From a phage, in assembly GCA_027217645.1 (NCBI GenBank), contig GCA_027217645.1_4344.1: a DNA stretch of 41,360 nt. One strand, written 5' to 3'. The translations under genes were made by a program, and so were the position numbers. The notes beneath the pieces are model-generated. The model ran no database searches, was not told the DNA's origin, and saw nothing but the letters and a program-made list of their open reading frames with translations. Below, in pieces: positions 12,943-15,832 of the stretch. The first letter of the stretch is position 1. Every line of letters starts with the position of its first letter.

Positions 12943-13091
12943 CAATGTTTGTATTTTGGACGATAGTAACCATGCTCGCGCTGTTACTCGGTGCGGGAAT
13001 AGCCGCGATGTTCTGTTACGGCCTGTTCTTTAAGTTTGTCGGTGTCGCCGTTCTAGGAGGGGCTTTCCTTACTTGGGATCTACGCTCATGA
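12939..13091 (+). CDS. Micro-protein (50 aa), hydrophobic membrane peptide
   Basis: Hand translation MTMFVFWTIVTMLALLLGAGIAAMFCYGLFFKFVGVAVLGGAFLTWDLRS; stop TGA overlaps the VRR-NUC ATG at 13088. Confidence 0.35.
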   Translation: MTMFVFWTIVTMLALLLGAGIAAMFCYGLFFKFVGVAVLGGAFLTWDLRS

Positions 13092-13372
13092 CTAAAGAGG
13101 GCCGCGTACAGAAATACGCAAAAGACCGATTCGAGGCCCTTGGCGGCCTCGTTCGCAAACTCTCCTACGAGGGGCGTTCCGGCGCCCCAGACCTGCTGGT
13201 AATTCTCCCCGGCGGCATAGTCTGGTTCGTCGAGGTTAAGAAAGACGAGAACACGAAGCCAGACCCGCACCAGCTACGGGAACATGAGCGGATGCGTAAA
13301 CGTGGTGCGAATGTTTTTGTCGTTGGTTCGTTTAAACAGGTTGACGACCTAATAGCTAGCTATTATAGTTAG
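13088..13372 (+). CDS. VRR-NUC domain nuclease (PD-(D/E)XK superfamily)
   Basis: Track ORF 13073..13372, start placed at the ATG at 13088 coupled to the upstream micro-ORF; GAPDLLVILPGGIVWFVEVKK fits the VRR-NUC catalytic core. Confidence 0.7.
   Translation: MTKEGRVQKYAKDRFEALGGLVRKLSYEGRSGAPDLLVILPGGIVWFVEVKKDENTKPDPHQLREHERMRKRGANVFVVGSFKQVDDLIASYYS
13341..13369 (+). promoter_or_regulatory. Sigma70-like promoter, TTGACG-N17-TATAGT, embedded in the 3' end of the VRR-NUC gene
   Basis: Seen in sequence: TTGACG (13341-13346), 17 nt spacer, TATAGT (13364-13369); contains the perfect palindrome AATAGCTAGCTATT (13351-13364), which also encodes the last residues of VRR-NUC. Confidence 0.5.
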
Positions 13373-13402
13373 TCCTACACCAACAATATAAGGAATTGAG
13401 AA

Positions 13403-13594
13403 ATGAAACACGAATATGACCGCAAACCAGCACGTGACATCGTACCGGGTGACATGATTTTCAACGTTAAGACACGTCAACCTGTTGCCGTTGATACGGT
13501 GTTCGTCGAGTCGAACGGTAAACTGGTTATCGAAGATGTAACGGGTAACGTTACGGCGTTCGGGCGTAAAGAGCTGGTGCTGGTGGCGAAATGA
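13403..13594 (+). CDS. Hypothetical protein
   Basis: Track ORF 63 aa; AAGGA RBS; stop overlaps the methyltransferase ATG as ATGA. Confidence 0.45.
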   Translation: MKHEYDRKPARDIVPGDMIFNVKTRQPVAVDTVFVESNGKLVIEDVTGNVTAFGRKELVLVAK

Positions 13595-14415
13595 ACTATT
13601 ACAATGAATGGGATAAAGGCGCAGCCGCGTGGCTGCGTGAGTTGATAAAACAGGGTCACATACCTTTTGGAGTTGTAGATGAAAGAAGCATTACCGAAGT
13701 TAAGCCAGAAGACCTTGACGGGTTCACCCAGTGTCATTTTTTCGCGGGTATCGGCGGCTGGCCTCTCGCGCTCAGACTTGCGGGAGTTTCGGAGGATACG
13801 CCTCTCTGGACGGGAAGCCCGCCTTGCCAACCGTTTAGCACGGCAGGAAAACAACTCGGACAGTTCGACCCGAGACACCTCGCGCCGGTCTTCCTCGACC
13901 TCATCAGCGAGTGCCGCCCTCCAGTCATCTTTGGGGAGCAGGTTGCGGCAGCAATTGCAAAATCGTGGATGTGCGATTTACAAGCTCACCTGGAAGGAGA
14001 AGACTACGCCGTCGGGTTTGCTGTACTCCCAGCTTGTAGCGTCGGCGCACCGCACAAAAGAGAACGACTCTTCTTTGGCGCGCACGAACTGGCCTACACC
14101 GACAGCGAACGACTTCAGAGGGAGCGGAGAGACAGTGATTCGCACGGACGGGAGGGACAGAACATTCGACAGGCTGGACTACTCAACAGAGCAGGGATTG
14201 AAAGCGAGTCAACCAACCCGCACCACGGCTTCTGGTCAGATGCTGACTGGCTCGGATGCCGTGATGGAAAGTTCCGGCCGGTTGAACCCGGCGCATTCCC
14301 GCTGGCTAATGGGATACCCGCAAGAGTGGGACGATTGCGCGGTTACGGCAATGCCATCGTCCCGCAAGTAGCCGCCGAATTTATAAAGGCGTTTATGGGG
14401 GCCGTAAATGAGTAA
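13591..14415 (+). CDS. DNA (cytosine-5)-methyltransferase
   Basis: Track ORF 274 aa; motif I FAGIGG, motif IV PCQPFS, degenerate motif VI GEQV, motif VIII-like HKRERLFF, C-terminal motif [14 protein letters not shown]; stop overlaps the helicase start. The +1 frame of the same DNA also carries methyltransferase-like motifs (see findings). Confidence 0.7.
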
Positions 14416-15832
14416 GTTTCAAAGGCGCGAATACCAGAAGCTCATGACCTCGTTCATGTTGCAGCACCATCGCTGTAATATTTGGGCGAGCATGGGCGCC
14501 GGGAAGACTGGCAGCGTCCTGTGGGCTTTAAACCGCCTGTTCCGCAACGGGCAACTTACGGACGACGACCGCGTGTTAATTCTCGCCCCGTTGCGCGTTG
14601 CGTCCGGTACGTGGCCCGCAGAACAAGAGAAATGGCAATTCCCTTGTCTGCGTGTCATCGATGCAACCGGTTCTGAGAAGCGCCGCATCGCGGCACTGGA
14701 GTCTGATGCTAACGTGGTGTGCACTAACTACGAAGTTATTGAGTGGCTGATTGACTACTACGGCAAAGACGACTGGCCTTTTACGGTTATCGTTGCTGAT
14801 GAGAGCACGAAGCTGAAATCATTCCGCAGCCGTTCAGGTGGGAGCAAGCGGGCTAAGGCGCTAAGCAAAGTGGCGTTCGGTAAGGTTAAGCGCTTCATTA
14901 ACCTTACAGGCACACCATCGCCTAACGGCCTCAAGGACCTGTGGGGTCAGAACTGGTTTATCGACGCCGGCGAGCGCCTCGGTTCATCGTACACAGCATT
15001 CACCGACCGCTGGTTTAACTCGGTACAGAAAGGTAAGTCAGCGATGGCGCGTGAGTATCATGCGCGCCCGGGTGCGGATAATGAGATTCATCAGAAGATG
15101 AAAGACATCAGTCTCACGATTGACGCCGCCGAGTGGTTCGGATGTGAAGCGCCGATTATTGTACCGGTTGAAATCGACCTGCCGAAGAAGGCGCGCCAGG
15201 CGTACATTGATATGGAGGAGAAGCTATTCGCGGAACTGGAGAGCGGAGAAGTTGAAGCGGCTAATGCGGCAGCGAAGACGTCGAAGTGCCTACAGATTGC
15301 ATCCGGTGCCGTGTATGTGTCAGGGCCAGACGGTGAAGCAACGAAAGACTGGGAGAAAGTGCACGACACGAAACTGGATGCGCTCGAGTCCATTGTTGAG
15401 GAGTTACAGGGGGCGCCGTTACTGGTCGCCTATCAGTTCAAGCACGAACTGGAGCGCATCCTCAAGCGCTTCCCGCAGGCGCAGGCTTTTGCAAAAGGCG
15501 CGAAGGGCAATAAGCAGATGGAAGCGTGGAACCGTGGCGAAATCGAAATCCTATGCGTGCACCCCGCGTCAGCCGGCCATGGTTTGAATTTACAGGACGG
15601 CGGACATCATCTGGCGTTTATTTCGCAAGGCTGGAACCTTGAGCACTATTTGCAGGTTGTCGAGCGTATAGGCCCGGTGCGCCAGAAGCAGGCGGGCCAC
15701 GAGCGACCAGTGTTCCTCTATCACATCGTTGCTAAAGACACGCTGGACGAGGTTGTTGCCTCGCGTACTGACGAGAAGAAATCGGTCCAGGAAGAGTTGC
15801 TTAATTACATGAAGAGACGAGGTAAGAAATGA
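14408..15832 (+). CDS. SNF2-family (DEAD/DEAH-like) helicase
   Basis: Track ORF 474 aa; Walker A MGAGKTG, DEAH-like VIVADESTKL, helicase C-terminal region HPASAGHGLNLQ. Confidence 0.8.
   Translation: MSKFQRREYQKLMTSFMLQHHRCNIWASMGAGKTGSVLWALNRLFRNGQLTDDDRVLILAPLRVASGTWPAEQEKWQFPCLRVIDATGSEKRRIAALESDANVVCTNYEVIEWLIDYYGKDDWPFTVIVADESTKLKSFRSRSGGSKRAKALSKVAFGKVKRFINLTGTPSPNGLKDLWGQNWFIDAGERLGSSYTAFTDRWFNSVQKGKSAMAREYHARPGADNEIHQKMKDISLTIDAAEWFGCEAPIIVPVEIDLPKKARQAYIDMEEKLFAELESGEVEAANAAAKTSKCLQIASGAVYVSGPDGEATKDWEKVHDTKLDALESIVEELQGAPLLVAYQFKHELERILKRFPQAQAFAKGAKGNKQMEAWNRGEIEILCVHPASAGHGLNLQDGGHHLAFISQGWNLEHYLQVVERIGPVRQKQAGHERPVFLYHIVAKDTLDEVVASRTDEKKSVQEELLNYMKRRGKK

Follow-up and report, generated by a model that had tools for sequence, protein, structure and literature searches.

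How can one phage gene carry the motifs of a cytosine-C5 DNA methyltransferase in two overlapping reading frames, and is the second frame read into a protein? The question arises from a window of 41,360 nucleotides (the whole stretch of DNA that was analysed, contig GCA_027217645.1_4344.1), which is a coliphage genome of the K1G-like Kagunavirus type. The initial annotation had described a C5-methyltransferase-like protein in frame 1 and, over the same DNA, a +1-frame (frame 2) open reading frame with two motif segments of such enzymes, and both were recovered where it had placed them (Table 1), as was the use of ata, aga and cga by frame 1 at the second frame-2 motif (14314-14334). As explanations it had considered compensating frameshifts in an ancestral gene, indels in the deposited sequence that would hide a protein read in frames 1, 2 and again 1, and the translation of the alternative frame into a second protein.

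The locus and its annotation

The frame-1 gene, referred to here as alpha, begins with an ATG that overlaps the TGA of a small upstream open reading frame (13403-13594), and its stop codon overlaps the start of an SNF2-type helicase gene (14408). About 84% of it is overlapped by the second frame, whose product is referred to as beta. The neighbours are a DNA polymerase, a VRR-NUC nuclease, the small open reading frame and the SNF2-type helicase, and a partner restriction endonuclease is absent among them. Both reading frames are already annotated in some GenBank records, and the choice varies by record: some list alpha only, some beta only (Alfacinha3), some a beta fragment (Cy-LDV1) and some both. 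In K1G, K1H and fTaEco01 beta is labelled "Mte8-like protein / DNA methyltransferase"; the source of the "Mte8" label was sought and not found.

Table 1. Positions in the window of the two reading frames and of their conserved or candidate elements
Feature	Position	Strand	Remarks
Alpha ORF	13591..14415	+	frame 1, 274 aa; putative catalytic large-domain subunit of a C5 cytosine methyltransferase
Beta ORF	13679..14371	+	+1 frame, 230 aa, entirely inside alpha; would be the subunit with target recognition and motif IX
Candidate internal ribosome-binding site GGAG (13669-13672), 6-nt spacer and beta ATG (13679-13681)	13669..13681	+	
Alpha motif I, FAGIGG (AdoMet binding)	13738..13755	+	A52, G53, G55 97-100% conserved; wobble saturated
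Alpha motif IV, PPCQPFS, putative catalytic Cys79	13819..13839	+	C79, Q80, S83 invariant; aligned to M.HhaI PCQ
Beta N-module, aa 78-131, including LVASAHRT	13910..14071	+	dual-coded with alpha motifs VI-VIII; L81.99, L85.95, L89.96, G97 1.0, W105.95, P111.95, S122.99
Alpha motif VI variant FGEQV (ENV-type)	13930..13944	+	G115, E116, Q117, V118 invariant; aligned to M.HhaI FMENV
Alpha motif VIII, including HKRERLFF	14044..14076	+	R157, R159 invariant; aligned to M.HhaI GIPQKRERIYM
Beta-only coding segment: WPTPTAND module (14090-14113) and variable recognition-domain-like region	14087..14227	+	W138.97, T140.96, P141.84
Alpha-dominated conserved block, aa 213-229	14227..14277	+	W215.97, C223.95, D225.99, R229 1.0; wobble fairly free (1.25-1.65)
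Beta motif IX-like segment, aa 202-217	14282..14329	+	L202.99, P204 1.0, W209.99, L210 1.0, M211 1.0, G212.99, P214 1.0, W217 1.0
Alpha motif X, including GNAIVP	14341..14385	+	G253, N254, I256 invariant; wobble entropy back at 1.63 bits

Selection on both reading frames

The 85 related loci examined, among them those of a low-GC T4-like phage, of N15 and of Rhodobacter phages, go down to 45% amino-acid identity. Every one of them has a +1 frame that stays open over 223-394 codons, whereas the +2 frame reaches 28-137 codons. When the frame-1 gene was shuffled, either among synonymous codons or in codon order, the longest +1 reading frame averaged 88-91 aa and not one of 5000 shuffles reached 230, whereas the 66 aa of the +2 frame are ordinary (2544 of 5000 shuffles reach that length). 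The same holds for the 45%-GC T4-like phage, in which none of 5000 shuffles attained the observed length of the +1 frame.

Alpha's own third codon positions are also constrained by frame 2. Measured at conserved four-fold codons, the wobble entropy of alpha is saturated over residues 1-103, which hold motifs I-IV (1.79 bits), is reduced to 1.03 bits over residues 104-164 under the beta N-module (p=4e-4), is nearly frozen at 0.33 bits over residues 230-246 under the motif IX-like segment of beta (p=1e-4), and amounts to 1.63 bits over residues 247-268, where it must be considered that these p-values overstate independence because the loci are phylogenetically related. Between these regions, residues 165-212 of alpha (14083-14226) form a non-conserved passenger linker, in which each of the three codon positions shows 1.4-1.9 bits and occupancy is poor. 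Read in the beta frame, the WPTP region is conserved at positions 1 and 2 and free at third positions (1.6-1.9 bits), which is a protein-coding signature of its own. Frame 1 is open across this beta-only region in 79 of 79 loci, against 18.5 expected, and it therefore keeps motif X joined to motifs I-VIII. Near-identical alpha proteins differ by exchanged middle segments, which would be the expected outcome if the other frame used this DNA for a recognition module that can be swapped; the K1ind and Golestan types are examples of close relatives whose cassettes differ.

The arrangement is widespread. In a tblastn search, 245 phage records matched the beta-frame segment and 250 the frame-1 C-terminus, and the overlapping matches in different frames include Rhodobacter, Burkholderia, Xanthomonas and Klebsiella phages, N15 and epsilon15. 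Conservation spans E. coli phages to Rhodobacter phages and cyanophages and extends over thousands of phage sequences. When both translations were aligned to homologues, similarity was thus found for frame 2 as well, and not a conserved frame 1 beside a second frame that resembles nothing. Comparison of the homologous loci demonstrates purifying selection on both frames, and the same comparison excludes that the +1 frame is a relic without function or an error of sequencing. That the alternative frame yields a second product is supported by the frame's openness in every locus, by its own conservation and by the frozen frame-1 wobble.

Alpha carries the catalytic motifs

Motifs I, IV, VI, VIII and X of the C5-methyltransferases are all found in the one alpha chain, and their key residues are invariant across 79 homologues. 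A motif II-like sequence, YYNEWDK, sits N-terminal to motif I. The Pfam profile PF00145 matches with 63 bits (cut-off 22), and this match covers only residues 73-168, corresponding to profile positions 65-164 of 324. Alpha also matches phrog_363 (E=4.5e-88) and, across motifs IV-VIII, M.HhaI (E=3e-8), and it scores 39.6 bits with TIGR00675 (dcm), which is below the cut-off of 100.65. No target-recognition domain and no motif IX could be found between motifs VIII and X of alpha, where residues 165-212 are unalignable, variable in length and devoid of profile coverage, so that a conserved region is absent from motif VIII up to the block near the C-terminus. This block is conserved in frame 1 as far as the Rhodobacter phages (68%, tblastn), and the beta residues that lie under it are mostly by-products. 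The AlphaFold2 model of alpha, built on a shallow alignment of 41 close relatives, has a mean pLDDT of 37.7 and is uninformative.

Beta carries recognition-like modules

The first approximately 75 residues of beta are rich in Arg and Ser, and the stretch that contains WPTPTAND follows from 14090. It is in beta that the conserved recognition-like modules sit, namely TWK..TP.G and the WPTP repeats; relatives possess between one and four or more W-x-T-P repeats, and the beta of the window has one. Further downstream, hhalign, run against the C-terminus of M.HhaI, placed the segment at 14282-14329 on M.HhaI RKLHPRECARVMGYPDSYK with a weak P=0.026, and phrog_116 gave a weak match at the corresponding place (E=0.056). 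Judged by its residue pattern and these weak scores, the segment may be a motif IX.

Beta matches phrog_1008 (E=5.7e-55). A protein search yielded 406 homologues, and among the 120 matches listed these were 83-249 aa long and carried no Pfam domain; an exhaustive search returned 23,403 clusters at E<=1e-3. Sequence searches of Pfam, NCBIfam and the PDB with beta, as a single sequence and as a 95-sequence profile, gave no match. In the AlphaFold2 model (mean pLDDT 58) only residues 76-125 are confident, where the N-module is predicted as a helix and a hairpin (pLDDT 78-89), and a Foldseek search of the PDB with this model gave no match at E<=1e-3. A single-chain relative that combines PF00145 with the beta region was not found, as none of the 8 long exhaustive-search matches that were scanned had PF00145 and one of them was a fusion of beta with Dam, and a plasmid search with beta matched only phage-plasmids and prophages.

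The beta ATG follows immediately after the last +1-frame stop codon (TAG, 13676-13678). In 67 of 79 loci an ATG is present either at this position or 6 codons downstream (-80 or -74 codons), 49 of them with a Shine-Dalgarno-like tetramer, and in the other 12 there is no ATG at either recurrent position. Two codons of alpha are also enriched in this stretch: R32 is encoded by AGG in 28 of 78 sequences, compared with about 5% at other Arg columns, and D36 by GAT in 46 of 57. Among 150 beta-type proteins listed, the majority start at profile position 1 or 7. An internal start of beta is plausible from these sequence features.

A proposed two-chain methyltransferase and its alternatives

Taken as an analysis of the whole locus, the most convincing explanation, and one that we consider probable, is that a single dual-coding gene gives rise to two polypeptides that form a heterodimeric C5 cytosine DNA methyltransferase. 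Ribosomes initiating at 13591 would produce alpha, in which the catalytic large domain that binds AdoMet (motifs I, IV, VI and VIII) would be followed by a non-conserved linker of about 48 residues, a short block that is conserved and the helix of motif X. Ribosomes initiating internally at the GGAG-N6-ATG (13679) would produce beta in the +1 frame, which would consist of a dispensable-looking N-terminal tail, the helix/hairpin module, one WPTP-type recognition module and the motif IX-like helix, and which would supply the small target-recognition domain that is absent from alpha. The DNA is shared in alternating blocks, in each of which one frame holds the functional residues and the other need only be kept open, and two blocks are constrained in both frames. 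The product may act as an orphan enzyme of the phage replication operon that protects phage DNA from host restriction by methylation. A start of beta at 13679, assembly of alpha with beta, their division of labour and this biological role are proposed by analogy with M.EcoHK31I, whose activity requires both nested products. Beta seems to supply the whole recognition domain and, as we infer, the specificity.

The rival readings fare differently against the same data. That the gene only looks two-framed, owing to indels introduced when this record was sequenced or assembled, was a first impression from a single sequence and nothing more. It is refuted by comparison, for the layout is identical in over 10 independent genomes of Kagunavirus (96-99% identity) and recurs in independently sequenced phages and in metagenomes, with hundreds of distant sequences among them, so that this reading can practically be dismissed. 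A single polypeptide made by programmed ribosomal frameshifts from frame 1 to 2 and back would restore the order of motifs I-VIII, recognition domain, IX and X; this composite resembles a normal C5 methyltransferase, and the gap between the frame-2 W (14329) and the frame-1 GNA (14347) is 17 nt, which is not a multiple of three. However, a -1 slippery heptamer at the 2-to-1 junction is found in 0 of 79 loci, and the sequence of the 1-to-2 junction is not conserved. The conservation of frame 2 begins at about 13910, some 180 nt before motif VIII ends, and because it overlaps motifs VI-VIII, that part could never be included in a frameshift product. Since the conserved frame-1 block at 14227-14277 separates one frame-2 motif from the other, such a product would take four shifts. 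Frame 1 is moreover open through the beta-only region, and frame 2 is open for 65-127 codons upstream of its conserved part, neither of which frameshifting requires. For the composite protein the coverage by PF00145 was not extended and the TIGR00675 score rose from 39.6 to 44.4 bits, profile scores which neither support nor exclude a fused product. Together these points speak against a reading in frames 1, 2 and 1 by frameshifting, and we regard such a product as very unlikely.

It is barely credible, too, that the motifs in frame 2 survive from an ancestral frame as a ghost devoid of function, or that they arise as a by-product of the constraint on frame 1. Some frame-2 conservation is demonstrably a by-product, as in AALQS over a 12-residue stretch of alpha and in SG..LTGS over W.D.DWL, but such an effect can neither freeze the frame-1 wobble at 0.33 bits, nor produce conservation in the phase of frame 2 where frame 1 is unalignable, nor hold a reading frame of 223-394 codons open in 85 of 85 loci. 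Compensating frameshifts in an ancestral gene may describe how the arrangement originated in evolution, but the part that is now out of frame is not dead, being conserved and selected in frame 2. An alternative that accepts translation and selection of beta, and which we hold to be unlikely, denies beta the role of recognition subunit of alpha, or gives it a further one: beta could be a DNA-binding or anti-defence protein in its own right, or serve another methyltransferase as a module. The lack of a Pfam or PDB match is in keeping with this, as is the case of the prophage L088, where a Dam-type N6-adenine methyltransferase domain (PF05869, E=4e-53) follows beta in the same reading frame; this Dam domain could, however, start at an internal ATG of its own. 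Against it stands that beta was found solely nested in C5 methyltransferase genes at every locus inspected, including the different ENV-type alpha of the Acidovorax phage Alfacinha3, that the region missing from alpha is exactly what the beta motifs would supply, and that the precedent of M.EcoHK31I favours a partnership of alpha and beta. Sequencing error, a frame-1 by-product and programmed frameshifting were all rejected on the grounds set out above.

Implications of the nested layout

If the gene encodes a heterodimeric methyltransferase as proposed, a layout that is known from one bacterial enzyme, M.EcoHK31I, seems here, from the sequences compared, to be conserved across phages. A description of nested phage methyltransferases was not found in the open-access literature, subscription journals lying outside the search. 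More broadly, and tentatively, as a view that we hold nearly but not quite as readily as its negation, the loci could represent a very large and largely unrecognised class of phage C5 methyltransferases, of more than 20,000 sequence clusters, in which the whole DNA-recognition domain is a separate, exchangeable +1-frame subunit and thus a kind of C5 specificity subunit. Exchange of the cassette or a change in the number of WPTP repeats would then retarget the enzyme while altering only the passenger linker of alpha, and M.EcoHK31I would be one domesticated member.

Annotation pipelines that penalise overlaps miss one of the two subunits, and predictions of specificity from alpha alone would therefore use the wrong chain. 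The expectation in the initial annotation that the second frame affects the predicted specificity is a fair one, given that frame 2 holds the recognition modules. Methods for finding overlapping genes could also be tested well on this natural case, since about 84% of the gene is read twice, the constraint alternates between the frames and its conservation extends from E. coli to phages of Rhodobacter and to cyanophages. Should beta be a recognition subunit that can be exchanged, the family would be a source of many naturally heterodimeric C5 methyltransferases for retargeting; M.EcoHK31I has reportedly already been used for split-enzyme targeted methylation. In K1-specific therapeutic phages the enzyme may affect the host range via the evasion of restriction.

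Comparison with known systems

The closest known system is M.EcoHK31I, a type II C5 methyltransferase of E. coli that recognizes YGGCCR (Lee, Kam & Shaw 1995, as described in PMC2836561 and PMC3404938). Its beta chain lies wholly within the alpha gene in another frame, alpha carries motifs I-VIII together with X, beta has motif IX, and both are needed for activity (PMC2836561, PMC3404938). Its beta uses internal starts and the N-terminal part of that chain is dispensable, whereas the recognition domain has been assigned to alpha and not to beta (PMC2836561, PMC3404938). Judged from this published description, the phage pair is alike in that beta is fully nested in a different frame and alpha possesses motifs I-VIII as well as X, and the N-terminal part of beta that is dispensable there is non-conserved here. 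It differs in that the recognition-like WPTP modules are found in the phage beta, where the phage alpha has an unconserved linker, and in that M.EcoHK31I belongs to a restriction-modification pair, whereas the phage enzyme is an orphan in a replication operon. The activity of M.EcoHK31I and its need for both subunits are known from experiment, whereas for the phage pair we infer them.

M.AquI (CYCGRG) is a natural C5 methyltransferase of two polypeptides that is split around the variable region (PMC3404938), and two polypeptides are likewise proposed for the phage enzyme. In M.AquI, however, the reading frames are consecutive and the small subunit comprises the distal variable region with motifs IX and X, whereas in the phages motif X resides on alpha and beta is nested. 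With the monomeric enzymes M.HhaI and Dcm (PF00145) the phage alpha shares the catalytic motifs, but unlike these it does not contain the small domain in the same chain. As an arrangement within a phage gene, the locus resembles the Rz/Rz1 spanins, in which a second protein is embedded out of frame and the products cooperate, as is proposed here for alpha and beta; it differs from them in its function, in an overlap that takes up about 84% of the host gene, and in a constraint that alternates between the two frames.

Gene organization

The window represents a K1G-like coliphage (genus Kagunavirus), and positions 13400-14600 are 96-99% identical to K1G, K1H, UTI-CM001, ULINTec2 and others. The initial annotation had described methyltransferase-like motifs in two overlapping frames, here termed alpha (frame 1) and the nested beta (frame 2, the +1 frame); all were located where it had placed them, and its remark on the ata, aga and cga codons of frame 1 is correct. 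In frame 1, the match to PF00145 (63 bits) is limited to motifs IV-VIII (aa 73-168), and structures of the monomeric enzyme M.HhaI match the same portion, while a Pfam search with frame 2 gave no match. In PHROGs, the frames belong to two distinct families, phrog_363 (frame 1) and phrog_1008 (frame 2).

The alpha gene belongs to a replication operon, where it is flanked by the genes of a VRR-NUC nuclease and of an SNF2-type helicase, and its start and stop codons overlap codons of the neighboring genes. The ATG of alpha shares bases with the TGA of an upstream 63-codon ORF (ATGA, 13591-13594), and the helicase ATG at 14408 lies 8 nt ahead of the point where the alpha stop codon ends (14408-14415), which suggests translational coupling along the operon. 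The upstream 99-aa ORF (13073-13372) is VRR-NUC-like with 19 bits, under the Pfam cut-off of 23.8, and is labelled Holliday junction resolvase in K1G. Alpha opens with YYNEWDK (13597-13614, aa 3-8; Y4 and N5 invariant, E6 92%, D8 97%), which resembles motif II of M.HhaI (YSNEWDK) but precedes motif I (FAGIGG, aa 50-55), and motif I is separated from PCQ by just about 25 residues. These sequence features hint that the AdoMet-binding region is permuted or shortened.

Coordinates of the nested ORFs, constraint by block, and two related phage genes
Feature	Position	Strand	Frame 1	Frame 2
alpha ORF	13591-14415	+	274 codons	
beta ORF	13679-14371	+		+1 frame, 230 codons, wholly within alpha ORF
Block	13591-13900		coding (motifs I, IV)	open, unconstrained; second positions vary
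Block	about 13900-14085		under constraint; motifs VI and VIII invariant	constrained; L81, L85, L89, G97, W105, P111, S122 at 95-100%
Block	14087-14227		not alignable, length varies, entropy 1.4-1.9 bits at every codon position	coding; W138, T140, P141 conserved
Block	14227-14277		dominant (W215, C223, D225, R229)	largely frame-1 by-product
Block	14282-14329		passenger, some constraint retained	dominant; LNPxHSRWLMGxPxEW near-invariant
Block	14330-14415		coding (motif X)	unconstrained
Rhodobacter phage RcRios			annotated gene, 433 codons	+1 ORF, 387 codons; four GWxTPxAxD modules and a further 16-residue motif
N15 gp58			336 codons	+1 ORF, 215 codons; same motifs as RcRios +1 ORF

Distribution and existing annotation

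Tblastn searches of a phage collection with the frame-2 segment and with the frame-1 C-terminus returned about 250 records per query, including Rhodobacter, Burkholderia, Xanthomonas, Pseudomonas, Klebsiella and Edwardsiella phages, cyanophages, N15 and epsilon15, and the matches overlap within a record in different frames. Scanning IMG/VR with the frame-1 alignment added 80 loci with 45-81% amino-acid identity, which form a set of 85 together with the window and four loci fetched earlier. The +1 frame has no stop over 223-394 codons, or 80-95% of the gene, in 85/85 loci; open stretches of the +2 frame span just 28-137 codons. When the window was shuffled by synonymous codons or codon order, none of 5000 shuffles gave a 230-codon +1 ORF (mean about 90), and the +1 ORF length of a 45%-GC T4-like phage was likewise reached in 0/5000. 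When a profile of frame-2 proteins was searched exhaustively, it matched 23,403 clusters (50% identity) at E<=1e-3 and 8,276 at E<=1e-30, and the frame-1 family search gave at least 8000 candidates. The same layout occurs in the distant cyanophage Cy-LDV1 and Acidovorax phage Alfacinha3, the latter with a catalytic frame of the classical ENV type.

Both ORFs are already annotated in the GenBank records of K1G, K1H, K1ind1-3 and fTaEco01, as "C-specific methylase" (frame 1) and "Mte8-like protein / DNA methyltransferase" (frame 2). Public annotation of such genes is inconsistent: the "methyltransferase" CDS of Alfacinha3 (L085 682-1848) is the +1-frame ORF, the annotation of Cy-LDV1 (L087 1207-1761) covers just 184 aa of the +1 ORF, and that of Aragogtheria (L086 999-1838) the catalytic frame alone. 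What is already known is both ORFs in some phage records, a PHROG family for each, and the gene trick itself, known since 1995 for one bacterial enzyme, M.EcoHK31I (PMC2836561; PMC3404938). In the open-access literature we found no recognition of these ORFs as a conserved nested two-subunit enzyme, of their presence in hundreds of phages and in tens of thousands of clusters from metagenomes, or of selective constraint alternating between the frames.

Selective constraint in the two frames

Entropy per codon position was calculated from 79 non-identical genes aligned in each frame; these loci are related, and the values from the entropy and shuffle tests serve as description, not as strict probabilities. 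In frame 1, the conserved four-fold codons of 13591-13900 have a wobble entropy of 1.79 bits (n=23), which drops to 1.03 bits (p=4e-4, descriptive) in about 13900-14085, falls to 0.33 bits (p=1e-4, descriptive) in 14282-14329 and returns to 1.63 bits in 14330-14415; in 14227-14277, the frame-1 wobble positions are rather free (1.25-1.65 bits). In 14087-14227, it is the third positions of frame 2 that are free (1.6-1.9 bits). Within 14282-14329, frame-1 residues E232, P237, L238 and R245 are conserved beyond what frame 2 alone demands, and N240, I242, P243 and A244 drift with the frame-2 wobble. Constraint alternates block by block, and we conclude that the frames time-share the DNA. Within the private block of one frame, the other stays open: frame 1 runs through the frame-2-only region in 79/79 loci, for which frame-2-synonymous shuffles predict about 18.5. 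Ahead of its first conserved residue, frame 2 has an open stretch of 65-127 codons in every locus but N15, where it measures 46 codons.

Access to the second frame

The +1-frame ATG at 13679 directly follows the last stop of that frame and is preceded, across a 6-nt spacer, by GGAG (13669-13672). Counted in codons from the first residue conserved in beta, an ATG at -80 (its position in the window) or -74 is present in 67/79 loci, accompanied by an SD-like tetramer in 49 of these. Arg32 is encoded by the rare AGG in 28/78 genes, versus about 5% at conserved Arg columns elsewhere, outside the overlap, and with Ser33 AGC/AGT this creates AGGAG; Asp36 is GAT in 46/57 genes and forms ATG with Val37. 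The frame-1 codons composing the -74 start thus look selected for that role. Most of the 150 proteins listed in the exhaustive search start at profile position 1 or 7, the two ATGs, which reflects the choice of gene callers and not an experiment. We think that frame 2 is probably entered through an internal SD and ATG. Frameshifting, which would give a single protein reading frame 1, then 2, then 1, is not supported: in the interval from the frame-2 W to the frame-1 GNA, a -1 slippery heptamer was found in 0/79 loci, the 1-to-2 junction has no conserved sequence across them, and the block pattern would demand four shifts. A frameshifted product would also drop the conserved frame-2 N-module overlapping motifs VI-VIII.

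Apparent cassettes, a fusion and an insertion

Six alpha homologues (P0133, P0197, P0198, P0212, P0222, P0229) are 86-92% identical to alpha over the aligned flanks and have unrelated sequence of 110-130 aa in the middle, in place of 14083-14226, where K1ind and Golestan-type phages have about 105 additional nt. This looks like cassette exchange of frame-2 recognition modules, and near-identical alphas with differing middles accord with recognition modules in beta. In a prophage adjoining an integrase (L088 2001-3494, Logan DRR294231 contig), the beta frame passes the motif IX-like segment without a stop and extends in frame into an N6-adenine methyltransferase domain of the Dam type (PF05869, E=4e-53). 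An intact alpha frame accompanies it, and the gene caller gave the beta-Dam ORF alone. In the 479-aa alpha homologue P0196, about 190 aa are inserted in frame within the segment overlapping the motif IX-like stretch of beta, with partially duplicated flanks (..RPVE..DGIP.. / ..FPLGKEIPARVG..), which could be an inserted element.

Proposed enzyme and comparison with M.EcoHK31I

Our analysis most likely describes a heterodimeric C5 methyltransferase, with two polypeptides produced from one gene. Alpha would provide the complete large domain (motifs I, IV, VI, VIII), followed by a passenger linker, the block of aa 213-229 and a helix with motif X. Beta would supply the missing small domain, consisting of a conserved helix/hairpin N-module, at least one WPTP-type recognition module and a motif IX-like helix. 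Both may assemble around DNA like the two domains of M.HhaI and methylate the phage DNA. We infer the translation of beta, the alpha-beta interaction and a target sequence. Structure prediction of beta was confident for aa 76-125 alone, and the N-terminal 70 residues are predicted to be disordered, which fits a passenger tail; prediction of alpha gave no usable model. By its pattern, 14282-14329 is tentatively assigned to motif IX, with weak matches to the M.HhaI C-terminus (hhalign, P=0.026, against a provisional M.HhaI sequence) and, at the expected profile position, to phrog_116 (E=0.056).

In the published descriptions of M.EcoHK31I, beta is nested in the alpha gene in a different frame, with motifs I-VIII and X on alpha and motif IX on beta, both being required; internal methionines of its beta also serve as starts, and the N-terminal part is deletable (PMC2836561; PMC3404938). 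The nested architecture of the phage gene resembles this experimentally established system. Unlike in M.EcoHK31I, the recognition modules of the phage enzyme appear to lie in beta.
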